NCBI GenBank assembly: GCA_947311255.1
Contig: CAMZKL010000022.1
Location: 10,801 to 74,800, forward strand
Length of the DNA: 64,000 nt
Reading direction: 5' to 3'
Source of the DNA: an uncultured Chlorobiota bacterium
GTDB taxonomy: Bacteria; Bacteroidota; Bacteroidia; Bacteroidales; JAADGE01
Below the pieces are notes generated by a model, which was given only the letters and a program-made list of their open reading frames with translations, did no database searches and was not told the DNA's origin. Positions 15,547 to 55,764 of this stretch are shown here, piece after piece; the first letter of the stretch is position 1; every line of letters starts with the position of its first letter. The translations under genes and the position numbers were made by a program.

Positions 15547-16113
15547 TTGCAAATTGAAAAAAAAGAAATAGAGTCTAAAATACTAAAAGCTTGTGAAAGA
15601 GGAAGTTTAAAGCATCAAGAAGTGCTTTACAGAAAATTCTATGCCTATGGAATGAGTATAACTTTAAGATACACAAAGAGCAAAGAAGAGGCAATTGAAG
15701 TTTTAAACGACAGTTTTTTAAAAGTATTTGAAAACATAAAAAAGTTTGACAAAAAAAAGTCTTTTAAATCTTGGTTTAGGCAAATTACCGTTAATACTTC
15801 TATCGATTATTTTCGTAAGAATAAGAAAATAATTCAGACTGATAATATTGAAGAGTGCAAAACAGAGATTTTTGAAATTGAAACTATCAGTAATCTTGAG
15901 ATTGATGATATATTGAAACTTTTAAACTCAATACCAAAACAATATTCAATAATATTTAATTTATATGAAATTGAAGGTTATAATCACAATGAAATAGCTG
16001 AAAAATTAAATATTTCAGACAGTACATCAAGAGCAAATTTATCTAGAGCAAAAAAAATGCTAAGAGAATTATATAAAAAAAATTATTATACCAATTATGC
16101 AGGAGCAGTTTGA
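15547..16113 (+). CDS. ECF-type RNA polymerase sigma-70 family factor
   Basis: 188 aa from a TTG start. It has a region 2-like segment and a region 4 HTH (YNHNEIAEKLNISDSTSRANLSRAKKMLRE). Confidence 0.85.
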   Translation: MQIEKKEIESKILKACERGSLKHQEVLYRKFYAYGMSITLRYTKSKEEAIEVLNDSFLKVFENIKKFDKKKSFKSWFRQITVNTSIDYFRKNKKIIQTDNIEECKTEIFEIETISNLEIDDILKLLNSIPKQYSIIFNLYEIEGYNHNEIAEKLNISDSTSRANLSRAKKMLRELYKKNYYTNYAGAV

Positions 16114-17419
16114 CAAACAATTCGCCAATAAAATTCGTAGCACATTTGAGAACTATGATGAACCGTTCAACAATGATGCATGGGAATTAATGAAACAAAA
16201 ATTAGCCGATAAAAAAAAGAAAACTTTATTTTTATTTTCTAATTTTTCAAAAGTTGCATCAATATTACTTATTCTTGGATTAGGAATTTTTACAGTTTAC
16301 GAAACAAATAAGTATTTTTTTGAAAAAAAACAAATCGTTTTTAATAAAAAAGAAAAGGAAAATATTGATTTAGCTGAAAACAAAACCAAAGAATTATTAA
16401 TCCCAACTGAAAACAATGAAAAACAAATTATAAATACTAAACTAAAAATCACAACTGTTAAAAACACAGGTTCGAACAAAAAAACCAACTTTAATAAAAC
16501 TTATAAGGATAATTCTAATAAAAGAAATAGCAACATTGTTCTACTAAACAAAAAAAAATCAAATCAGAATCAAAAAAATGAAGTTAATGACATTTTAAAT
16601 AAAAATAACAAAAGCAATAGTGATACTCTCATAAATAAAGAATTACAAAAAGAAAATAAAAAAATATATGCCAGTAATGATAAAACTTTAAAGTCTGACA
16701 GTTTAAACAAACAAATAAAAGATAAAATTACAGACAAAAAGCCAATTTTAATGCCTGATGATGATGATTTCTTTATAACTAAAAAATCTGCTAAGAAATT
16801 CAATTATAGTGTTGCGTTTTCTTCACATTACAGTTCTTCAGACATGGGAACAGCTGACAAAATAAATGTTGGAGGAGGCTTTCAAACAGCATATATTATT
16901 TCGGACAATTTCAGTATTAACTCAGGTTTATTAATTGCAAATCATAATATGAACTCGAAAGAAAGCATACAAAAAGACAAAGAAGTTTACAAGTCTTCAA
17001 ATAAAACATTAATAAAAACATCTGAAACTAACATAAAATTTACAGGGGTAGATATTCCATTAAACATTCAATATAATTTGAATAATTTATATGTATCAAC
17101 AGGTATTTCTTCGATATTTTATTTGAAAGAATCCTACTCAATTAATTATTATTCTGAAAATACAACCGAAATATTTAATTACGAAACAAAATCTTACAAC
17201 AAAGTATATTATTACGACACTGAAAACGAAACGATTAATAAAAAAGCATTTAACACATTTGATTTTGCAAAACTTTTTAATATTTCATTAGGATATAAAA
17301 TCCCTCTTAAAAAAGGAAGTTTAATTGTTGAGCCATATGCAAAACTACCTATTGGAAAACTTACTTCATATAATATTTTATACGGATATGGGGGTTTGGG
17401 TTTGAAATATGGATTTTAA
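16097..17419 (+). CDS. Putative anti-sigma factor fused to a C-terminal outer-membrane beta-barrel-like domain
   Basis: It overlaps the sigma gene by 17 nt. It has a short cytoplasmic N-terminus, one TM helix (VASILLILGLGIFTVY), a roughly 150-aa K/N-rich low-complexity linker and a C-terminal alternating-strand domain ending GLGLKYGF. Confidence 0.65.
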   Translation: MQEQFDKQFANKIRSTFENYDEPFNNDAWELMKQKLADKKKKTLFLFSNFSKVASILLILGLGIFTVYETNKYFFEKKQIVFNKKEKENIDLAENKTKELLIPTENNEKQIINTKLKITTVKNTGSNKKTNFNKTYKDNSNKRNSNIVLLNKKKSNQNQKNEVNDILNKNNKSNSDTLINKELQKENKKIYASNDKTLKSDSLNKQIKDKITDKKPILMPDDDDFFITKKSAKKFNYSVAFSSHYSSSDMGTADKINVGGGFQTAYIISDNFSINSGLLIANHNMNSKESIQKDKEVYKSSNKTLIKTSETNIKFTGVDIPLNIQYNLNNLYVSTGISSIFYLKESYSINYYSENTTEIFNYETKSYNKVYYYDTENETINKKAFNTFDFAKLFNISLGYKIPLKKGSLIVEPYAKLPIGKLTSYNILYGYGGLGLKYGF

Positions 17420-17528
17420 TGCTAAACAACATTTCAAAAATACAGTTTAAAAGTATGAGTTTGCCCTGCGAAAGTTACTATTTAGCACTTTCTTTAGCAC
17501 AAACTATATCCATTACTTCCTATTTCTT

Positions 17529-18266
17529 TTAAATTTTAAATCCTATTCCTAATCTAATAGCAAGACTAACAGGTGTGTTATAAAAATCACTATTTTTTTT
17601 ACTCCTTTCTTCTAATGATAATTCTGGGTCTTCATTCCTTAAATATGTATAATGGGTAGTTGCAAGTGCTATTGGAATATTTAAATCAAAATACCATCTT
17701 TCACTTATAGAATACTCAATTCTTGGTATTACCGATAAATAAAGACCAACGATTGTTTTAGTCTTCTTAAATTCTGTATTTAATAAAGTGTCTATTTTGT
17801 CCCAAATAATAAAAGGAGTTCCTGAAAATCCAATTACTGGTTTAATTTTTTCCCAATCCTTATTTTTAAATAATCTTAATTTATATTCATAACGAAGATA
17901 TAATTCAAATTGTTTTTGAGTATTTTCTGAAATAACATTCAATAAAGAACCAGTAGAATCAAGTAAAGTATATTCTTTATTAAATTTGTTAGAATAATCT
18001 AATCGGGATATTTCAATTTCAGAAGAATTTCCTTTTTTAGTATAAAATACTAATGATGGAGAAAAATTAAAACCATTAATCTCTTTCACATATTCATTTC
18101 TGCTTATACCACTAATAGTATCAATTTCGCAATCTAAATATTTGGATAAAAAATCAAAATTTGAATATAATTTAAAATCTTTAGATCTTTTTTTCTTTAA
18201 ATCGTTTTGTCCAAATAAATTAACTGATACTAACAAGAGTACAAATATAAAATTTACACTTTTCAT
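17529..18266 (-). CDS. Hypothetical secreted / outer-membrane beta-barrel-like protein
   Basis: 245 aa with signal peptide MKSVNFIFVLLLVSVNLFGQ and a C-terminus (LGIGFKI) resembling a barrel closing strand. No family recognised. Confidence 0.5.
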   Translation of the reverse strand: MKSVNFIFVLLLVSVNLFGQNDLKKKRSKDFKLYSNFDFLSKYLDCEIDTISGISRNEYVKEINGFNFSPSLVFYTKKGNSSEIEISRLDYSNKFNKEYTLLDSTGSLLNVISENTQKQFELYLRYEYKLRLFKNKDWEKIKPVIGFSGTPFIIWDKIDTLLNTEFKKTKTIVGLYLSVIPRIEYSISERWYFDLNIPIALATTHYTYLRNEDPELSLEERSKKNSDFYNTPVSLAIRLGIGFKI

Positions 18267-18506: not shown

Positions 18507-18514
18507 TAATTTTG
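18507..18514 (+). promoter_or_regulatory. Bacteroidota -7 promoter box (TAATTTTG) for tRNA-His
   Basis: Exact match to TAnnTTTG, ending 4 nt before tRNA position 1 (18519). Confidence 0.55.
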
Positions 18515-18518
18515 CATC

Positions 18519-18592
18519 GCCGCCGTAGCTTAGTTGGTTAAAGCGCCTGATTGTGGTTCAGGAGATCAAGGGTTCAAATCTCTTCGGTGGTA
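18519..18592 (+). tRNA. tRNA-His (anticodon GTG); no encoded G-1, G1-U72 wobble, A73 discriminator, no encoded CCA
   Basis: Hand-folded cloverleaf. Acceptor GCCGCCG/CGGTGGT, T8 A9, D stem GCTT/AAGC. Anticodon stem CCTGA/TCAGG with loop TTGTGGT. T stem AAGGG/CTCTT with loop TTCAAAT. Confidence 0.85.
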
Positions 18593-18600
18593 CATAAACA

Positions 18601-18630
18601 AAGGCACTGCAAAATTGTAGTGCCTTTTTT
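18601..18630 (+). terminator. Rho-independent terminator-like hairpin after tRNA-His
   Basis: AAGGCACT (18601-18608) pairs with AGTGCCTT (18619-18626), and the 3' arm runs into a T-run ending at 18630. Confidence 0.6.
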
Positions 18631-18663
18631 GGCACTAAAAATCATTAAAAAATATTTTTAAAA

Positions 18664-20265
18664 ATGAGCAAAAACAAAAGAGGTGTTTTCCCACGTAAAA
18701 TTAAAGGATTTAGAGATATAAATCCAGAATTAAACCAATTGCGAACAAAAATAATTACAAAAGCCGCAGAAGTATATAGAAAATACGGATATGAGCATTG
18801 GGATACTCCATCAATAGAATATGCTGATAATCTTGGAAAATATATGCCAGACAAAGACACAATAGAAGAAGGAGTTTATTCTTTCAGAAACCCGGAAAAC
18901 GAACCTGTTTACTCAAATAAAGGAGAAGAATTACGAGATAATGACAACTCTGTAATTATGGAAAACCATTATCTTTCAATGAGATACGACCTAACTGCTC
19001 CTTTGGCTCGTTTATATTCTGAAAAAGTTTGGCAAAGCTATATGCAAGGTAATTTAACCGAAAAAAATATACCACTTTTCAGACGCTATCAATTTGGAAG
19101 AGTTTTTAGATATGAAGCAAAATTAGACCCAGGCAGATTTAGAGAGTTTTGGCAAATAGATTTTGATACTGTTGGAACAAATGATGTATCTGCTGATGCC
19201 GAAGCCTGTATGATTTTATCAGATGCAATGGAAGCTATTGGTCTTAAACGAAATACATACATTGTAAATGTTAACGACAGAAAAATTCTTAAAGGATTTC
19301 TAAAAAGTATTGGAATTTTTAAACTAAAAATAGAAGATGACAGCAAAATTCTCCAAGGCGAAGACTTAGAGCAAGCAATTCTTAGAATTATTGATAAGGT
19401 TGACAAAATTGACCTAAAAGGCGTTCTTGAAGAGCTAGGAAAAGGAAGAACTGACACATCCGGAGCAAAAATACAGGGCTTAAACTTACCTGACAGTATT
19501 ATTCCAAAAATAAACAGTTATTTGTCTGCTTTTGAAAACATAAAAACAAGAGCAGAAATTATTGAAAAACTTACAGCATTCAACATAAAAGACGTTATTT
19601 TTAATGAAGGACTTGAAGAACTGAAAAAAATTGATCTTTTATTAAAAAATATTGGATATCAAGATGATAGAATAATGTTTACCCCTACCCTAGTTAGAGG
19701 AATGGCATACTACACAGGACCCGTTTTTGAGGTAAATTCATTACAAACATACAAAGATCACAAAGGACGGAAAAGAGCAGTTGGAGCAATATGCGGAGGT
19801 GGAAGATACGACGGATTAGTAAAAAATTTACTCGGAATAAAAGCTCCTGCAACTGGTGCATCAATTGGAGTGGACAGGCTTGCAGAATTACTTATGCTCA
19901 CAAATCAAAATGATGATTTAGAAGATGGTCCTGTTTTTATTGTAATGTTTGACGATAACTTAATGCCTGAATATCAGAAAATTGCAGCAGAATTAAGAAA
20001 TGCAGGAATTGAAACAGAAGTTTATTACGGCTCTCAAAAACAATTAAAAAAACAAATGAAATATGCCGATAAAAAAAACTGCCCAATTGCCTTATTAATT
20101 GGAGAGAATGAATTTAAAGACGGTATTGTTACTGTTAAAAATCTAAAATTAGGCAAAGACAAATCAATGCAAGCAATACAAGATAGAAATGAATGGCAAT
20201 CAAAAATTCAAAAAGAAATTAAAAGGGAAAATTTAATTCAGTACATTTCAAAAATTATAAAATAA
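18664..20265 (+). CDS. hisS: Histidine--tRNA ligase, long eukaryote/archaeal-like form
   Basis: 533 aa. Class II motifs: RYDLTAPLARLY, FRRYQFGRVFRYEAKLDPGRFREFWQIDFDTVG (motif 2) and CGGGRYDGLV. The C-terminal anticodon-binding domain begins GPVFIVMFDD. Confidence 0.92.
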   Translation: MSKNKRGVFPRKIKGFRDINPELNQLRTKIITKAAEVYRKYGYEHWDTPSIEYADNLGKYMPDKDTIEEGVYSFRNPENEPVYSNKGEELRDNDNSVIMENHYLSMRYDLTAPLARLYSEKVWQSYMQGNLTEKNIPLFRRYQFGRVFRYEAKLDPGRFREFWQIDFDTVGTNDVSADAEACMILSDAMEAIGLKRNTYIVNVNDRKILKGFLKSIGIFKLKIEDDSKILQGEDLEQAILRIIDKVDKIDLKGVLEELGKGRTDTSGAKIQGLNLPDSIIPKINSYLSAFENIKTRAEIIEKLTAFNIKDVIFNEGLEELKKIDLLLKNIGYQDDRIMFTPTLVRGMAYYTGPVFEVNSLQTYKDHKGRKRAVGAICGGGRYDGLVKNLLGIKAPATGASIGVDRLAELLMLTNQNDDLEDGPVFIVMFDDNLMPEYQKIAAELRNAGIETEVYYGSQKQLKKQMKYADKKNCPIALLIGENEFKDGIVTVKNLKLGKDKSMQAIQDRNEWQSKIQKEIKRENLIQYISKIIK

Positions 20266-22808: not shown

Positions 22809-24173
22809 ATGAAAAAAGAATTTTTCATCCTAAGACTACACGACATAGGAGCAATAAAATTTGGAGAATTTACTCTAAAAAGTGGTAAAAAATCTCCTTT
22901 TTATTTTGATTTGCGAGATATGATTTCATACCCCGATATTCTTAACACAGCAGTAAATTTAATTGTCGATAAAATTGAAGATTTAGATTTTGATTATATT
23001 TCAGGAATACCATATACTGCACTCCCCATTGCAACATTAGTTGCAGACATATTAGACAAACCGCTTATATATGCAAGAAAAGAAGAAAAATCCTATGGAA
23101 CAAAAAACACAATTATAGGAAAATTTGAAAAAGGTTCAAAATGCTTAATTATTGATGATTTAATAACATCAGGAGAAAGCATAATTGAAATATCAGAAAA
23201 ATTTAATAAAGAAGGTATTGAAACAATCGATTTTTCAGTACTTATTGACAGAAGCGACAATGCAAAGCAAAAATTAAGTAATGCAGGATTTAATCTTCAC
23301 CCAATATTTGAATTAGATGAAGTCATTAAAATTCTTAGAACTAACAATAGAATTACAAAACAAAGAGCTTCTCAAATTAAAAAATATACAAACGTAAAGC
23401 ATGAAAAAACAGATATAAAAGTTAAAAATAATCATTTAACCAAAATATTAAAGCAAAAAATAGAACAAAAAAAATCTAATCTAATACTTTCGCTTGATGT
23501 TGATAATCAAAAAGATTTTTTTGAAATTATTGACAAAACTTATAAGCATATTGTAATGGTAAAAACTCACGTCGATATTATAAATGATTTTGATGAAAAC
23601 TTCATAAAAAAACTTAAAGAATACGCAATCACTCGTAATTTTATGATTTTTGAAGACAGAAAATTTGCAGACATAGGAAATACTGTTCAGAAACAATATA
23701 AAAACGGAATATATAAAATAAAACAATGGTCAAATTTCATAACTGTTCATGCAAGTCCAGGAGAAGGAATTTTACAAGGTCTTTTTTCAGGAGTTGTTAA
23801 CAGAAGTTCATTTTTATTAGCAAAAATGTCATCAAAAGGCAATTTAATGAACGATAATTATACAAGACAAGTTTTTGAAATGGGAAAAAAATATTCCGAT
23901 GTAGTTTCAGGATACATAGTTCATGCAAACACAAAAGAAGAATTACAAAGATTAAAAAACAAAATTCCAAAGGGTCAATTATTATTAATGCCCGGAGTTA
24001 AACTCAAAGCAGGAGAAGATGCCACAGGTCAACAATACACAACCGTAGAAGATGCAATGCAAGGTGGTGCAGATTGTATAATTGTAGGAAGAGGAATAAT
24101 TGCGAATAATAATCCAGAGAAAATTGCAAAAGAATATAAGGAACGTGCTTGGAAAATTTACTCAAATAAATAA
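22809..24173 (+). CDS. pyrEF: Bifunctional orotate phosphoribosyltransferase / OMP decarboxylase (UMP synthase-type fusion)
   Basis: A single 454-aa ORF. The N-terminal half has the PRTase motif CLIIDDLITSGES. The C-terminal half has ODCase motifs LILSLDV, MVKTHVDIINDF, IFEDRKFADIGNTV and IIVGRGI. Confidence 0.9.
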   Translation: MKKEFFILRLHDIGAIKFGEFTLKSGKKSPFYFDLRDMISYPDILNTAVNLIVDKIEDLDFDYISGIPYTALPIATLVADILDKPLIYARKEEKSYGTKNTIIGKFEKGSKCLIIDDLITSGESIIEISEKFNKEGIETIDFSVLIDRSDNAKQKLSNAGFNLHPIFELDEVIKILRTNNRITKQRASQIKKYTNVKHEKTDIKVKNNHLTKILKQKIEQKKSNLILSLDVDNQKDFFEIIDKTYKHIVMVKTHVDIINDFDENFIKKLKEYAITRNFMIFEDRKFADIGNTVQKQYKNGIYKIKQWSNFITVHASPGEGILQGLFSGVVNRSSFLLAKMSSKGNLMNDNYTRQVFEMGKKYSDVVSGYIVHANTKEELQRLKNKIPKGQLLLMPGVKLKAGEDATGQQYTTVEDAMQGGADCIIVGRGIIANNNPEKIAKEYKERAWKIYSNK

Positions 24174-28865: not shown

Positions 28866-28966
28866 GATACTTCAATTTGTTGTTTGCATGAGAAATGTCA
28901 TGTAAATTTATGTTTAATGAAATATTTAAAAAATAATAAAAATTATTGCAAGTTTGTTTAAAAAAA

Positions 28967-28974
28967 TATCTTTG
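28967..28974 (+). promoter_or_regulatory. -7 promoter box (TATCTTTG) for citXG-citC
   Basis: Exact TAnnTTTG match 24 nt upstream of the ATG at 28999. This argues against the longer TTG-initiated ORF from 28954. Confidence 0.5.
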
Positions 28975-28998
28975 CACATTCAATTTATTATAAAAATT

Positions 28999-30363
28999 AT
29001 GAGTGAAATTTTACAGAAAATATTATTAGCAAAAGATAATAGAGCAAATTTGCGTAATACTTTTTCTGCAAAAAAAAATGTGTCAATTAGTTTAAGTTTA
29101 AATATTGCTTCTTACCCAAAAACTAATAAAAACATAAGTCAATTTTTTAACTTGGTTTTAGCAGATTTAAAAATTTTCCTTTTAGCAAATAAAGTTTTTA
29201 TTGATAATCGTTCGGAAGTTAACAGTATTGATGAAGCAGGTAATTTTTTTATAGCAATTGTTAAAAATAAAGATATTACATCTTCTGAAATAAAACAAAT
29301 TACAGAAGAATTTGAAGAAAACCACAAGTTAGGAAGGTTTATAGATGTTGATATTACAAATAAACATGGCAAAAATGTAAGTTCACATAAAAAAAAGTTA
29401 TGCTATTTTTGTAATGAAAAGCCTGCCATTGTTTGTATGCGAGAGAAAACGCATTCATATCCTGAATTAAAGTCTTTTATTTCAAAAAAAATTAATGACT
29501 ATTTATTTAATGAAAAGAAGAAGCAAATTACAAAACAATTAAGTTCTATTGCTTTAAAATCAATATTATACGAAGTCTCACTAAGTCCAAAACCCGGCTT
29601 GGTTGATTTTTATAATTCTGGTTCTCATAAAGATATGAATTATTATACATTTTTAAATTCATCAGCAGCACTTGCCCAATATTTTACAAAATTTGCTGAA
29701 TTAGGGTATGGTTTTAATGAAGATTTATCAAAAGCAATTTCAAAAATTAGAATTATTGGTTTGCAAACCGAAAAAGATATGTTTGCTGCAACTAATGACG
29801 TAAATACACAAAAAGGAATAATATTTTTAATGGGAATTGCTTTATTTTCTGCATCTTATGTTTTTTATAAAGATGGAAAATTTACTATTTCAAATTTTCA
29901 GGAAACTGTAAAAAAAGTTTGTAAAAGTCTTGTTTACAGCGAATTGCAAAATTTACAAGTTTATAAAACTCATGGGGAAAAGTGTTTTGAAAAGTTTGGC
30001 TTAAAAGGAGCAGGAGCAAGACACGAAGTAGAACAAGCATTTCCGACAGTTGTAAATTTTGCATTGCCAGTATTAGAAAAATATTTTAGAGGAAACAAAA
30101 AAGAAGAAATTGAACTTGCACTAAGAAAAACTTTACTTGCAATTATTTCTAAAAATAATGATTCAAATGTTTTATACAGAAAAGGAGAAAGTATTCTTAA
30201 AAAATTAAAGATATTTTCAAAAGATGCGTTTATTGAGGATAAAGAATATAATAAAGTTTGTAAGTTTTGTATAAAAGAAAACATTTCACCCGGTGGTTCT
30301 GCCGATTTACTAGCAGTTTCACTTTTTTTACATTTTACTAAAAAAGATAAAAATGAATTTTGA
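28999..30363 (+). CDS. citXG: Fused CitX (apo-citrate lyase phosphoribosyl-dephospho-CoA transferase) / CitG (triphosphoribosyl-dephospho-CoA synthase)
   Basis: The N-terminal ~180 aa are CitX-like (GRFIDVDI). The C-terminal ~270 aa are CitG-like (SPKPGLVD, ISPGGSADLLA). The summed length matches separate CitX plus CitG. Confidence 0.8.
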   Translation: MSEILQKILLAKDNRANLRNTFSAKKNVSISLSLNIASYPKTNKNISQFFNLVLADLKIFLLANKVFIDNRSEVNSIDEAGNFFIAIVKNKDITSSEIKQITEEFEENHKLGRFIDVDITNKHGKNVSSHKKKLCYFCNEKPAIVCMREKTHSYPELKSFISKKINDYLFNEKKKQITKQLSSIALKSILYEVSLSPKPGLVDFYNSGSHKDMNYYTFLNSSAALAQYFTKFAELGYGFNEDLSKAISKIRIIGLQTEKDMFAATNDVNTQKGIIFLMGIALFSASYVFYKDGKFTISNFQETVKKVCKSLVYSELQNLQVYKTHGEKCFEKFGLKGAGARHEVEQAFPTVVNFALPVLEKYFRGNKKEEIELALRKTLLAIISKNNDSNVLYRKGESILKKLKIFSKDAFIEDKEYNKVCKFCIKENISPGGSADLLAVSLFLHFTKKDKNEF

Positions 30364-35296: not shown

Positions 35297-37333
35297 TTAA
35301 AAGCTATATCCCAAACCAAAATTAATAAACCTCCCAATACTTTCTTGGTCAGAATAGATAAGGTATTTTTTGTTTAAGGCATTTTGAATTGAAACTGAGA
35401 CTTCAAAACCAAATTTTAAAGATTTTGACATTTTAAAATCTAATAAATACTGTTTTGGTATTGAAGTTGTGTTTGCATTATCTATAAATTGCTCACTCAG
35501 ATATGTAAATGAAGTTGAAAAAGTAATATTTTTTGCTTGTATTCTTAAACCAGTTTGCAAATTATGATTTGGAGAATAATTTAACACTTTCCCTTCTAAG
35601 TCCGGCTTCTTGCTAAATTTCATAATTTTGCTTTTTGAATAAGAATAATTTAAAAAGCCATTAAAATACTCGTTAAAACTAAATATAATGGAACTTTCAA
35701 ACCCATATAATTCAACTTCGGTAATATTTTCTTTCATTACAATAGGCTTTTTTCCAAAAATAACATCTCCTGTTTCTGTATAATACATGAAGTTCTTACC
35801 TCTTGTTAGATATGTTGAAATTTCAATTTTTATTTTCTTTTTTGAAAATGTAGTTCCAAGTTCATAGTTATCAACATTCTCAGATTTAAGCTCTGGATTT
35901 GCGATTTTAAAAGCTCCTGCAATAAAGCCTGTTCTACTGAGGTCATCGAGTGTTGGGGCTCTAAAACCGGTTGAATATGACATATAAGTTTTTAAAAAAT
36001 CGTTCAAAAAGAGCAACGATATTTTTGGTGAAAATGAATTTTGATTTTTGTTAGATATTTTAGATTGGTAATTTAAAAGAAAATTAGAATTATTTGTAGG
36101 TTTCTCAATTATAAACTCGGCTTTATTTAATAAAGTATAATCATAATGCAGGGTGGCATTAACAAATAATTTTTCTATAATCTTAAAATCATTATTTAAG
36201 AAAATGGAATAATTATTAATATCTCCAATATTTCGTATGATATCAGTTGATGTTTTATATTCATCCGACCCATTTACGATGCCTTTTTTCAAATCAAAAC
36301 CTGCTGAAAGTGTATTTCTACTAGTTTTATGTGAAATGTTTCCTGTAAATCCAAAATCTTTTCTGCTGGAATTTACATTATACATTGAATAAACTTGTTT
36401 TTTAATTTTCTCAACAGTTCTAAGGTATTGTTCGTTCTGAAAATAAACATTTGCATTCCAACTTATATTTTTGCTATGTCCTTGATATTTACTTCTAAAA
36501 AAATGAGTATCATGGTCAACTGCATTTCCAATTTTATCCTTAATTTTTATTCCTTGACTTCTTTTATCGTTATAATAATTGTAAGAAAAATTTATTTTAT
36601 TATTTTTATTTAATTTGTATTCTTTAGATAAATCTATCCCAAATTCTTCACACCAAGAAGCAATATTTGTCGAATCTCTCAAACTATCTATTTGAGAAAT
36701 ATATCCATCACTTTTTCTATAAAAAGAATTTATTTTATACTTAAATTTTTTATTTTTAAAAGGAGTTCCCGAAATACCGGCATTTACAGAATAAGTATTA
36801 AATGTACCGTAATTCAAGTTTATATTTCCCGAAATTACATTTTTGCTATAATCCTGAGTTAATATATTTATTACTCCACCCATTGCACTTTTTCCAAAAA
36901 AAGATGACCCCGGACCACGAACTATTTCAATTTTTGAAACATTTGAAGGATTAAATCTGTTCCAATTTACACCTCCCAAATCAGATTTGTTTATTGGCAC
37001 TCCATCTTGAAGCACAAGAATTCTACCTTGTTCATTTCCCCCAAATCCACGTAAACTAACATTGCTTTTTCCGAAAATTCCAAATGGTCTTACAATATTA
37101 ACCCCTGAAACGGCTCTCATGGCATCATCAATTGAGCTTAAAGGAATTATTTTTAAATATTTGGTATTGATAATTGATGCTGAAGCAGGAATTTTATTTA
37201 TTGATTGTTCAATTCTTCCAGCTGAAATAATTACTTCGTCTAATTTAATAGAACTTGAGTCTTTTTGTGCAAATAAAACTGCTGAAAAAAGACAAAAAAC
37301 AGTAAACAATACAAATGAATATTTAATCTTCAT
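35297..37333 (-). CDS. TonB-dependent outer membrane receptor (substrate unknown)
   Basis: 678 aa with a signal peptide, a plug domain (DEVIISAGRIEQS...) and a 22-strand-type barrel with terminal GLGYSF. Confidence 0.9.
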   Translation of the reverse strand: MKIKYSFVLFTVFCLFSAVLFAQKDSSSIKLDEVIISAGRIEQSINKIPASASIINTKYLKIIPLSSIDDAMRAVSGVNIVRPFGIFGKSNVSLRGFGGNEQGRILVLQDGVPINKSDLGGVNWNRFNPSNVSKIEIVRGPGSSFFGKSAMGGVINILTQDYSKNVISGNINLNYGTFNTYSVNAGISGTPFKNKKFKYKINSFYRKSDGYISQIDSLRDSTNIASWCEEFGIDLSKEYKLNKNNKINFSYNYYNDKRSQGIKIKDKIGNAVDHDTHFFRSKYQGHSKNISWNANVYFQNEQYLRTVEKIKKQVYSMYNVNSSRKDFGFTGNISHKTSRNTLSAGFDLKKGIVNGSDEYKTSTDIIRNIGDINNYSIFLNNDFKIIEKLFVNATLHYDYTLLNKAEFIIEKPTNNSNFLLNYQSKISNKNQNSFSPKISLLFLNDFLKTYMSYSTGFRAPTLDDLSRTGFIAGAFKIANPELKSENVDNYELGTTFSKKKIKIEISTYLTRGKNFMYYTETGDVIFGKKPIVMKENITEVELYGFESSIIFSFNEYFNGFLNYSYSKSKIMKFSKKPDLEGKVLNYSPNHNLQTGLRIQAKNITFSTSFTYLSEQFIDNANTTSIPKQYLLDFKMSKSLKFGFEVSVSIQNALNKKYLIYSDQESIGRFINFGLGYSF

Positions 37334-37547
37334 AACAATGAATTTTAATTAATAACTTGTAAGGAAACTGAGTTTGAATATAAGGTAAGCTATCCCATAA
37401 CAGGAATAATACAAATCATTCACCTTTCCAATTCAGATAACTCATGTTATCCTCGGGAGGTTAGTTCGTTTCCAAAAAAACCCATCGGTTAAAAATCATA
37501 GCCATCTGCCTTAGATATTTTAACTCGGAGAAATATTTAATTTAGTG
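37334..37547 (-). ncRNA. Long structured 5' leader of the TonB-dependent receptor (candidate cis-regulatory RNA, class not recognised)
   Basis: About 210 nt separate the TATATTTG box from the ATG. Sense-strand helices: GGAAAC/GTTTCC (37468-73 with 37363-68), GATAAC/GTTATC hairpin (37436-51) and AAGGTGA/TTACCTT (37420-26 with 37382-88). The G-U wobbles form only in the sense orientation. Confidence 0.4.
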
Positions 37548-54278: not shown

Positions 54279-55061
54279 TTATTTAAATAGACTAATCATA
54301 ATAACTGTTGTTGTGATTGCAGAAGATATTGCAGAAAAGAAATAAAAATAATCTTTAAAATTCATTCTTGCAATTTTAGCATTCATTGGTTCAACTATAA
54401 CAATATCATCAGGGTATAAATAAAATTTATTAGAAGATAATAATTGCCTGTCAGTTAAGTCTAATTTATAAACAAATCTTTGATTCTCTCCTTGCCTAAC
54501 AACAGTAACGTTTGTCATTTTGCCATATTCTGTTATGCCACCCACTCTTGCTATTGCTTCTAAAATATCAATATTATCTTGATAAATAAAAATTGACCCT
54601 TCATTTTTTACTTCTCCTAAAAAAGACACTTTAAAACTTACAAACTTCACACTTACTATTGCATTATTTAAAAATTCATTTGTTTTTGAAGTTACAACAG
54701 AACGAAATTCTTGAACTGTTTTTCCTGCTGCAGGAAGACTTCCTAAAATTGGGATTTGAACAAAACCGGAATCATTAACAGTAAATCCGGAAAGATAAAA
54801 CTCCCCTCCACTACTTGCTCTCACATTATTACCACTTCTTGTTTCAATTTTAAACAACTCATTAATTTTAGGGTCGGTTGTAATTATCTTAACATGAAGA
54901 ACATCACTTGGTTTTAGTCTGTACTGTTCTGATTTGTTTTTGTAAACATATACGCTATCATTTTTTTGATCTTCATTATATATGTACCTCACTCTCCTAT
55001 TGCAAGAAGAAAAAATCATTACAAATATTATTACAAAAAAAATTAAGTTTGAAGTTTTCAT
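54279..55061 (-). CDS. Polysaccharide export outer membrane protein (Wza-like)
   Basis: 260 aa with lipoprotein signal (FSSCN), a Poly_export-like motif (YRLKPSDVLHVKI) and an SLBB-like domain. Confidence 0.85.
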   Translation of the reverse strand: MKTSNLIFFVIIFVMIFSSCNRRVRYIYNEDQKNDSVYVYKNKSEQYRLKPSDVLHVKIITTDPKINELFKIETRSGNNVRASSGGEFYLSGFTVNDSGFVQIPILGSLPAAGKTVQEFRSVVTSKTNEFLNNAIVSVKFVSFKVSFLGEVKNEGSIFIYQDNIDILEAIARVGGITEYGKMTNVTVVRQGENQRFVYKLDLTDRQLLSSNKFYLYPDDIVIVEPMNAKIARMNFKDYFYFFSAISSAITTTVIMISLFK

Positions 55062-55176
55062 TATTTTTTTACTATTTTTCTTAATTTACAAAAGTAAAAA
55101 TTATATTTGTTTTTTAAAGGTAAATAATAAAAACGGCATTTTAATTGTACTTTTATCTATTATAAAACTACAAACT

Positions 55177-55764
55177 ATGGAATTAAATTCAGATATTTTT
55201 AAAATAAAACACAATGGTATTGCCCCTAAACAAGGGAATATCCTTATTTCTGAACCATTTGCACCAGACAGTATATTTAGTCGTTCTGTTATACTACTTG
55301 CAGAGCATAACGAAGAAGGAACTATTGGATTCATACTTAATAAGCCTTTAAAACAAAATTTGGCGCAAATAACCGACAATTTCGGAAATATTGACATGAA
55401 AGTATCAATAGGAGGTCCGGTTAGTAAAGCTAACATTTATTATATTCATACATACGGAAAATTAATTCCTGAAAGTATAAAAATAAAAAATAATTTATAC
55501 TGGGGGGGGAACTTTAAAGTTCTTCAAACATTATTAGAATCGGGAACTGTTAATGAAAGGAAAATTAGATTTTTTATTGGATATTCCGGTTGGCAACTTA
55601 AACAATTAGAAGATGAATTAAAAAAAGATTTTTGGCTCGTTTCTGATATTGATACTAAAACAATAATGAGATATGACAAAGAAATTTGGAATAAAGTTAT
55701 TTCAAAACTTGATAAAAGATACAGTATTTGGCAACATTTTCCAGAAAATCCAAATTTGAATTAG
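55177..55764 (+). CDS. YqgE/AlgH family protein (DUF179)
   Basis: From the ATG at 55177: MELNSDIFKIKHNGIAPKQGNILISEPF...SVILLAEHNEEGTIGFILNKP and GYSGWQLKQLEDEL. The 65 codons upstream in the listed ORF overlap wza and look non-coding. Confidence 0.85.
   Translation: MELNSDIFKIKHNGIAPKQGNILISEPFAPDSIFSRSVILLAEHNEEGTIGFILNKPLKQNLAQITDNFGNIDMKVSIGGPVSKANIYYIHTYGKLIPESIKIKNNLYWGGNFKVLQTLLESGTVNERKIRFFIGYSGWQLKQLEDELKKDFWLVSDIDTKTIMRYDKEIWNKVISKLDKRYSIWQHFPENPNLN
55503..55510 (+). repeat. G8 homopolymer inside the yqgE-like CDS
   Basis: tgg ggg ggg encodes W-G-G, the same nucleotide string as the tract at 47787. Confidence 0.9.

Follow-up and report, generated by a model that had tools for sequence, protein, structure and literature searches.

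How is the histidine tRNA of a bacterium recognized, when its gene carries no G-1? In canonical bacteria, histidine identity is based on an encoded G-1:C73 pair and involves an unusual RNase P cleavage. In the eukaryotic cytoplasmic system, tRNA-His has A73, and G-1 is added by Thg1 and required by the histidyl-tRNA synthetase (HisRS). The question is raised by a 64-kb stretch of contig CAMZKL010000022.1 (all of it referred to here as the window; G+C content 28%), in which a tRNA-His gene without this pair lies directly upstream of hisS, the gene for a long and atypical HisRS. An initial annotation of the locus drew attention to this physical linkage, which was borne out, and proposed that a histidine identity system without G-1 had arisen independently, or depended on a Thg1-like enzyme. 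Comparison with related loci makes a different answer likely, namely that the two genes form a G-1-independent histidine identity system of the alphaproteobacterial kind, residing in a low-G+C, Bacteroidales-like bacterium.

The tRNA-His gene

Two tRNA genes were detected in the window, and ARAGORN called tRNA-His(gtg) at 18519-18593. The following elements were assigned:

18519..18592, + strand: tRNA-His(GUG) of the type lacking G-1 (dG-1), with G1:U72, C2:G71, C3:G70, G4:U69, A73 and G37 (ARAGORN, RF00005)
within 18519..18592, + strand: D-loop AGTTGGTTA, 9 nt, with U20a
18553..18555, + strand: anticodon GTG (ARAGORN)
18518..18518, + strand: position -1, a C and not a G, with no pairing to A73 possible (read from the sequence)

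The segment 18519-18592 matches the Rfam family RF00005 with 66.8 bits (E = 2.4e-12; gathering score 29). The alignment begins at G1 and covers model positions 1-71, with full posterior probability throughout, and G18519 is therefore position 1 and A18592 the discriminator. The acceptor stem, GCCGCCG/CGGTGGT, contains two wobble pairs, G1:U72 and G4:U69, of which the initial annotation had reported the stem and the first pair correctly and left the second unmentioned. With A73 at 18592, no G-1:C73 pair is encoded. ARAGORN and the covariance model agree on this point, and the RF00005 alignment, proposed earlier as a check, contains no G-1 paired to C73. The 3′ trailer reads ACATAA, such that C74 is encoded (18593) and CCA is not; the ARAGORN end coordinate takes in C74, one base beyond the discriminator. 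A shifted register, with G18519 as G-1 paired with C18593, was considered and ruled out, because the pairs that follow would be the mismatches C:A and C:T. A chance match is excluded, as the score lies far above the gathering score and the same type of tRNA stands beside the same type of HisRS at 13 other independent loci. A tRNA scan and a hisS search of the window revealed just one tRNA-His and one hisS, and no second copy of either.

A dG-1 system has been described for the Rhodobacteraceae-Rhizobiales-Caulobacterales-Hyphomonadaceae (RRCH) group of Alphaproteobacteria, for example Caulobacter crescentus (Yuan 2011, PMC3064791; Wang 2007 and Ardell & Andersson 2006, as relayed by later papers). 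The C. crescentus HisRS achieves full charging of a transcript that lacks G-1, and supplying this base brings no gain; the identity elements are A73, U72, and the anticodon (PMC3064791). G1:U72 and A73 were confirmed as critical for another alphaproteobacterial HisRS (Mukai, PMC7590224). All five published hallmarks of the alphaproteobacterial dG-1 tRNA-His, namely A73, G1:U72, C3:G70, a 9-nt D-loop with U20a, and G37 (PMC3064791), are present in the window tRNA-His, which, like the RRCH tRNA, has no G-1. Its acceptor ends and D-loop are nearly identical to those of two alphaproteobacterial controls (GCCGCC../..GGTGGTA), Pseudorhodobacter (L097; GCCGCCT.../...AGGTGGTA-CCA) and Methylobacterium (L098; GCCGCTG.../...CAGTGGTA-CCA), both with T at -1. 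The canonical Bacteroidales controls, Segatella (L099) and Parabacteroides (L100), encode G at -1, G1:C72, and C73. On the basis of these controls, the window tRNA-His departs from the ordinary Bacteroidales pattern and fits the alphaproteobacterial exception. As a blastn query against a plasmid collection, the window tRNA retrieved no alphaproteobacterial tRNA-His, whereas a query of higher G+C content, from locus L014, did find them.

Other histidine tRNAs that lack G-1 have been described. Trypanosoma brucei and Acanthamoeba castellanii likewise combine such a tRNA with a HisRS that is non-canonical and does not depend on G-1 (PMC4338351 and PMC3561963, as summarized in PMC9976931), although these are eukaryotic systems of presumably independent origin. 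The (8/4) tRNA-His of alphaproteobacterial phages has no G-1 and carries A73 or U73 (Mukai 2017, PMC5389517), thus representing a G-1-less tRNA on potentially mobile DNA. The window tRNA, by contrast, has an ordinary 7/5 cloverleaf, is chromosomal, and lies beside its synthetase.

The synthetase and its relatives

The product of hisS scores 334.6 bits on TIGR00442 (cut-off 286.75), and HisRS domains alone, PF13393 and PF03129, were found in it by Pfam. The features of the gene, where groups A and B denote the two subfamilies described below, are:

18664..20265, + strand: hisS, encoding a 533-aa HisRS of the dG-1 type, subfamily group A (TIGR00442, Pfam, neighbour-joining tree)
18889..19068, + strand: additional segments found in group A alone, aa 76-103 and 121-135, missing from alphaproteobacterial dG-1 HisRS (alignment)
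19108..19155, + strand: motif-2 loop RYEAKLDPGRFREFWQ, aa 149-164 (alignment)
19126-19128, + strand: Asp155, at the position of E. coli Gln118 (alignment)
19435..19488, + strand: insert LGKGRTDTSGAKIQGLNL in the insertion domain, aa 258-275, in common with alphaproteobacterial dG-1 HisRS (alignment)
19744..19782, + strand: insert QTYKDHKGRKRAV, aa 361-373, in common with dG-1-type HisRS (alignment)
20152..20220, + strand: insert GKDKSMQAIQDRNEWQSKIQKEI in the anticodon-binding domain, aa 497-519, in common with dG-1-type HisRS only (alignment)

Protein searches with this HisRS returned one 99%-identical sequence and about 10 relatives with 71-76% identity. Beyond these comes a very large number of proteins of 513-530 aa, at 57-65% identity, among whose source labels are Bacteroidales, Ignavibacteria, Omnitrophota, and Acidobacteria. 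The 99%-identical protein is encoded in GCA_054023215.1 (L086, of which 7.6 kb were read), with the tRNA and hisS laid out as in the window. In tblastn searches against annotated records, alphaproteobacterial hisS genes rank first (36-39% identity over the full length, E ~1e-97), with the best matches from Ruegeria, Paracoccus, Sinorhizobium, Cereibacter, and Methylobacterium, whereas canonical Bacteroidales hisS genes reach ~29% (E ~1e-39). A scan of GTDB, taking one genome per species and the family peptides PGRFREFW and [LM]RYDLTAPL, yielded at least 600 rows. Among the matches listed were Rhodobacterales, Parvibaculum, and Hyphomicrobium, as well as metagenome-assembled genomes (MAGs) labelled Bacteroidales, Chitinophagaceae, Myxococcota, Planctomycetota/Phycisphaerae, and Acidimicrobiales/Microthrixaceae/Iamia.

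In a tree built from 50 HisRS by neighbour joining (481 columns, 200 bootstraps), the window protein and the alphaproteobacterial dG-1 HisRS share one clade, recovered in 200/200 bootstraps. The canonical Bacteroidales, E. coli, Streptomyces, a haloarchaeon, a Bacillus cereus plasmid copy, human, and Nostoc 3net all fall outside it. Within the clade, group A (200/200; 513-535 aa) contains the window, Bacteroidales, Chitinophagaceae, Ignavibacteria, and Myxococcota, together with sequences labelled Omnitrophota, Acidobacteria, and Deferrimicrobium, and is the deep sister subfamily to group B (179/200), which consists of Alphaproteobacteria, Planctomycetota, and Acidimicrobiia. Over the trimmed columns, the window HisRS shows 40-43% identity with the alphaproteobacterial enzymes, 32% with both canonical Bacteroidales and human HisRS, and 26% with that of E. 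coli. The canonical system of E. coli, Bacteroides, Prevotella, and Parabacteroides has the amino acid, the anticodon, and the class IIa fold in common with the window pair, which differs from it in the absence of G-1, in A73 versus C73 and U72 versus C72, and in the replacement of Gln118.

The residue-level features follow the same division. In E. coli, Gln118 reads G-1:C73, and its replacement by Gly has been called characteristic of the alphaproteobacterial clade (Amrine et al., PMC3937112). The equivalent position is Gly in all 26 group B sequences (26/26), Asp in 14/16 of group A, and Gln in 5/8 references, these being canonical sequences and those of solved structures. The motif-2 core PGRFR(E/Q)F is common to groups A and B and absent elsewhere in the alignment; the motif-2 string quoted in the initial annotation was read correctly. 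All three inserts (aa 258-275, 361-373, and 497-519) are absent from canonical, human, and Nostoc HisRS. Yuan et al. (PMC3064791), citing Wang et al., point to an insert in the anticodon-binding domain that sets this type of HisRS apart from all other class IIa synthetases, and that probably underlies its discrimination of anticodons. Relative to the RRCH enzymes, which have in common with the window HisRS the clade, the PGRFR loop, the loss of Gln118, and the anticodon-binding-domain and two further inserts, the window protein carries ~40 extra N-terminal residues (aa 76-103 and 121-135), and these segments account for most of the difference in length between 533 and ~495 aa. The two also differ in host (Bacteroidota versus Alphaproteobacteria) and in Asp versus Gly, and belong to sister subfamilies at ~40% identity. 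The alphaproteobacterial exception, with which the locus had been compared at the outset, is the right comparison.

The length of the HisRS, 533 aa against 424 aa for E. coli (L096), had been given correctly, and the enzyme had been described as eukaryote- or archaeal-like. An AlphaFold 2 (AF2) model has an overall predicted local distance difference test (pLDDT) score of 79.6, with values below 50 for residues 49-79 and 101-107, in the N-terminal region that holds the group A segments, and the aa 497-519 insert is modelled confidently as short helices and a strand. Its closest solved structures are human HisRS (the top neighbour), Nostoc 3net, Elizabethkingia 6nhi, and the trypanosome enzymes, which are more distant matches than the human one; among the structures searched, no dG-1-type bacterial HisRS was found. 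The likeness holds as a description of the nearest structures. It does not hold as an explanation of the G-1-less tRNA, because the canonical Bacteroidota HisRS, whose tRNAs have G-1:C73, fall into the same broad class.

Linkage, transcription, and surroundings

The spacer between tRNA-His and hisS in the window is 71 nt, one less than the 72 nt originally counted; the placement of hisS directly downstream stands. A tRNA-His gene was found 28-110 nt upstream of a dG-1-type hisS in the window, L087 (a 75% relative), L001 (a Bacteroidales MAG; L003 has the same sequence), L110 (an 8.07-Mb contig), L112, L113, L007 (a Chitinophagaceae MAG), L010 (an unclassified MAG), L011 (a Planctomycetota MAG), L014, L025, and L040 (Acidimicrobiia MAGs), and L093 (an Omnitrophota-labelled MAG). 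In the Ignavibacteriales MAG L091, the tRNA-His lies 5.4 kb upstream of hisS. At the acceptor end of the 14 linked tRNAs, G1:U72 is present in 13/14 (the exception is L007, with C1:G72) and A73 in 13/14 (the exception is L093, with U73), G-1:C73 occurs in 0/14, and the base at -1 is C, T, or A, never G.

Several variations at this end were observed. In 9/14 linked tRNAs, as in the two alphaproteobacterial controls, the base at -1 is T, facing A73. At L093:9865-9938, U73 occurs with A at -1, and at L113:1077-1151, A73 occurs with U at -1; in both, a -1:73 pair is possible, and the extra base was included by ARAGORN. The U73 of L093 is also the variant known from the phage (8/4) tRNA-His. At L007:483-557, C1:G72 is combined with A73. 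The 74%-identical relative L089 has no upstream tRNA-His; at L089:9845-10003, it has a stretch resembling a T-arm and 3′ acceptor strand, GTTCAAAGCTCATCGACACCATA, followed by the conserved hairpin with its T-run, and this stretch looks like the decayed 3′ remnant of a linked tRNA gene. A scan of viral contigs turned up five alphaproteobacterium-like hisS loci, none of them with tRNA-His, and gave no sign of a phage-borne cassette.

Two candidate control elements flank the tRNA:

18507..18514, + strand: TAATTTTG, a candidate Bacteroidota-type -7 promoter box (TAnnTTTG) by motif match, ending 4 nt (CATC) before tRNA position 1
18600..18630, + strand: G+C-rich hairpin with a 12-bp stem, then a T-run, 7 nt past the tRNA (RNAfold)

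A TAnnTTTG box is also found upstream of the linked tRNA-His in L087, L001, L110, L091, and L112, at a distance of 11-15 nt. The 4-nt gap reported earlier is correct for the window species and particular to it; speculatively, such a gap would be compatible with initiation at or next to G1. The five Bacteroidota-type tRNA-hisS spacers scanned, that of the window among them, contain no TAnnTTTG box, and in a sigma-70 promoter scan of the locus, promoter-like sites were at the level of shuffled sequence. The tRNA-hisS spacer of the window folds at -18.5 kcal/mol (RNAfold), and an equivalent hairpin and T-run were found in L087, L001, L007, and L010 by RNAfold, and in L110 and L112 by eye. The hairpin resembles an intrinsic terminator, or an attenuator, placed between the two genes. 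A simple terminator scan missed it, probably because A/T pairs at the base of the stem consume part of the T-run.

Downstream of hisS, many group A relatives directly carry a gene for an aromatic amino-acid lyase, with histidine ammonia-lyase as the best match (NF006871, 535.7 bits in L001), forming a conserved tRNA-His/hisS/hutH-like neighbourhood. These hutH-like genes, each located 3′ of hisS, are:

L001:11625-13382
L089:11609-13330
L091:11581-13167
L093:11575-13209
L110:11565-13328
L113:2875-3948
L114:2776-3954

In the window, hisS is followed instead by pyrD, and then by pyrC, a pyrE-pyrF fusion, pyrB, and pyrI. The fusion is a single open reading frame (ORF) at 22809-24173 (+), with phosphoribosyltransferase and orotidine monophosphate decarboxylase domains, an arrangement like that of uridine monophosphate synthase. 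Other window genes include uppS, bamA, two skp/ompH, murI, a resistance-nodulation-division efflux set, a gene for an extracytoplasmic function (ECF) sigma factor, citrate lyase genes, electron-transfer flavoprotein genes, pspA, ubiE, ftsH, cdsA, psd, tig, clpP, and clpX. For FtsH, the nearest relatives that carry a name come from MAGs labelled ‘Bacteroidales bacterium’ (77-78% identity), and the host was taken as Bacteroidales-like on account of these homologues.

Upstream of the tRNA, at 15547-18266, the ECF sigma factor gene overlaps the beginning of a 440-aa ORF that is rich in Lys and Asn, has no Pfam match and possibly encodes an anti-sigma factor, and a 245-aa ORF, likewise without a Pfam match, lies on the other strand. 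The promoter region is contained in the 252-nt A+T-rich gap between this last ORF and tRNA-His. Elsewhere in the window, a molybdenum/tungsten-cofactor riboswitch (RF01055, 63.4 bits; 37405-37542, - strand) was found directly upstream of a TonB-dependent receptor gene (35297-37333, - strand), a layout that suggests cofactor-controlled outer-membrane uptake. An ORF at 28954-30363 (+) fuses CitX and CitG, and adjoins the genes for the alpha and beta subunits of citrate lyase and its ligase; CitX-CitG corresponds to apo-citrate lyase phosphoribosyl-dephospho-CoA transferase and triphosphoribosyl-dephospho-CoA synthase. At 54279-55764, the ORF listed for a polysaccharide export protein (-) shares 80 nt with the one listed for an AlgH-like protein (+); the true start of the latter is probably further downstream, because the AlgH match begins at residue 94.

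Explanations of the locus and their meaning

A two-gene, G-1-independent identity system would operate as follows. The tRNA and hisS would be transcribed from the single upstream promoter, with the hairpin letting a part of the transcripts continue into hisS, and thereby setting the ratio of tRNA to hisS mRNA. As no G-1:C73 pair is present, RNase P would cut at the ordinary +1 site, although in the window species, G1 or a base adjoining it may be where transcription starts. The 3′ trailer would be trimmed and CCA completed, beginning from the encoded C74. The dimeric class IIa HisRS would then recognize the G1:U72 wobble and A73 via its remodelled motif-2 loop, in which Asp155 replaces Gln, and would read the GUG anticodon with an anticodon-binding domain that carries the family-specific insert, charging the tRNA without the need for G-1. 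The pair itself has probably spread laterally as a self-sufficient cassette, since members of each subfamily come from several phyla, and the cognate tRNA gene is frequently located just before hisS.

Several points weigh against this explanation. The linkage is not universal: no adjacent tRNA-His was found in L006, L008, L009, L012, L013, L015, L089, L111, or L114, nor in any of the alphaproteobacterial loci scanned for tRNAs, whereas in the window, the tRNA is directly upstream of hisS with the hairpin between them. The distribution of the dG-1 HisRS in GTDB is described qualitatively, from the matches listed, the taxonomy of most related loci is that of MAG labels, and the tree of 50 sequences is a neighbour-joining one rather than the product of full maximum-likelihood inference. 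Homology at ~40% identity is the basis on which the mature 5′ end and the charging without G-1 are proposed. Group A has Asp where Gly characterizes the alphaproteobacterial enzymes, as well as the extra N-terminal segments, and its recognition of the acceptor end could differ in detail from theirs.

A further-reaching version of the same explanation can be put forward tentatively. The G-1-less set might not be an alphaproteobacterial invention at all, but an old tRNA-His and hisS cassette with two deep subfamilies, which moved between phyla (Bacteroidota/Ignavibacteria, Planctomycetota, Acidimicrobiia, Myxococcota, and Alphaproteobacteria) and repeatedly displaced G-1:C73, such that the RRCH ‘synapomorphy’ would be one acquisition among these. 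In this version, the window tRNA might also be leaderless and made without an RNase P step, because no more than 4 nt separate the promoter box from G1.

The alternative that survives best, though it is unlikely, is that the pair is an accessory one, recently acquired, and redundant or specialized, for example in histidine catabolism, beside a canonical hisS and a G-1:C73 tRNA-His elsewhere in the genome. Charging of E. coli tRNA-His by the C. crescentus HisRS is ~250-fold poorer, and the C. crescentus pair is described as orthogonal in an E. coli background (PMC3064791); as the two types of HisRS discriminate against each other's tRNA, both pairs could coexist. A layout like that of a cassette and a patchy distribution over phyla point to mobility, the genomic neighbourhood varies among close relatives, and the idea of histidine catabolism rests on the hutH-like neighbour in relatives. 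The 64 kb seen leave room for a second, canonical pair, which is a further point against the main explanation. However, no second tRNA-His or hisS lies within those 64 kb, the locus stands amid housekeeping genes, with no mobile-element genes among the window ORFs scanned, and it is conserved at 71-76% identity in a set of relatives. In Alphaproteobacteria, moreover, the dG-1 pair is the sole pair (PMC3064791).

Less probable still is the Thg1 route raised in the initial annotation, in which a Thg1-like 3′-5′ nucleotidyl transferase encoded elsewhere would add G-1, to be recognized by HisRS as in eukaryotes. A73 without an encoded G-1 is indeed the eukaryotic pattern at the level of the gene, as it is in the window, human HisRS is among the closest solved structures, and bacterial Thg1-like proteins exist, some of which accept A73 substrates (PMC3245924). 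Again, the view of the genome is confined to 64 kb, and a Thg1-like gene could lie elsewhere. Yet what archaeal-type Thg1 enzymes add opposite A73 is U rather than G (PMC3245924), and the 47 window ORFs scanned, each at least 150 aa long, gave no match to the Thg1 domain (PF04446). The window HisRS belongs to a clade separate from that of the eukaryotic enzymes, is a clade-mate of enzymes shown to be G-1-independent, and lacks the Gln that reads G-1:C73, and the tRNA has kept G1:U72 and U20a, whose conservation is relevant just to recognition of the dG-1 type.

Least probable of all is the independent origin first suggested, that is, a convergent loss of G-1 in Bacteroidota served by a eukaryote/archaeal-like HisRS adapted on its own: the identity of group A to the alphaproteobacterial enzymes is just ~40%, and Asp replaces Gly at the Gln118 position, but the 200/200 joint clade, the three common inserts and PGRFR loop, and the full tRNA identity set (the same five hallmarks on nearly identical acceptor ends) argue for common descent with lateral spread, and against convergence.

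The G-1-independent two-gene system therefore remains our preferred explanation. In the searchable literature, including the 2023 review PMC9976931 and PMC7590224, with many subscription papers beyond reach, no dG-1 system was found outside Alphaproteobacteria. Searches for G-1-less or A73 tRNA-His in Bacteroid* or across phyla returned nothing relevant, the nearest being the alphaproteobacterial phage tRNAs. Judged from its sequences, the window pair appears to belong to a distinct subfamily of a known system, and what appears to be new is the spread of that system over several phyla, often as a unit of tRNA and synthetase.

For annotation pipelines, this means that G-1 should not be expected in tRNA-His genes of the dG-1 type. 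The family also offers a large and diverse pool of natural HisRS/tRNA-His pairs. Like the C. crescentus pair, for which this was shown, they may function orthogonally to canonical hosts, E. coli for example, and could serve genetic-code engineering. More broadly, G-1 on tRNA-His is among the most conserved identity marks in biology, and its loss has been treated as a single event of one alphaproteobacterial clade and used as a phylogenetic marker, for example in the placement of SAR11. Occurrence in multiple phyla weakens the uniqueness of that marker, and the origin of the alphaproteobacterial system becomes open to question again. Because the tRNA and the enzyme would travel together, the linked pair would represent a concrete vehicle for the lateral transfer of a changed identity rule.

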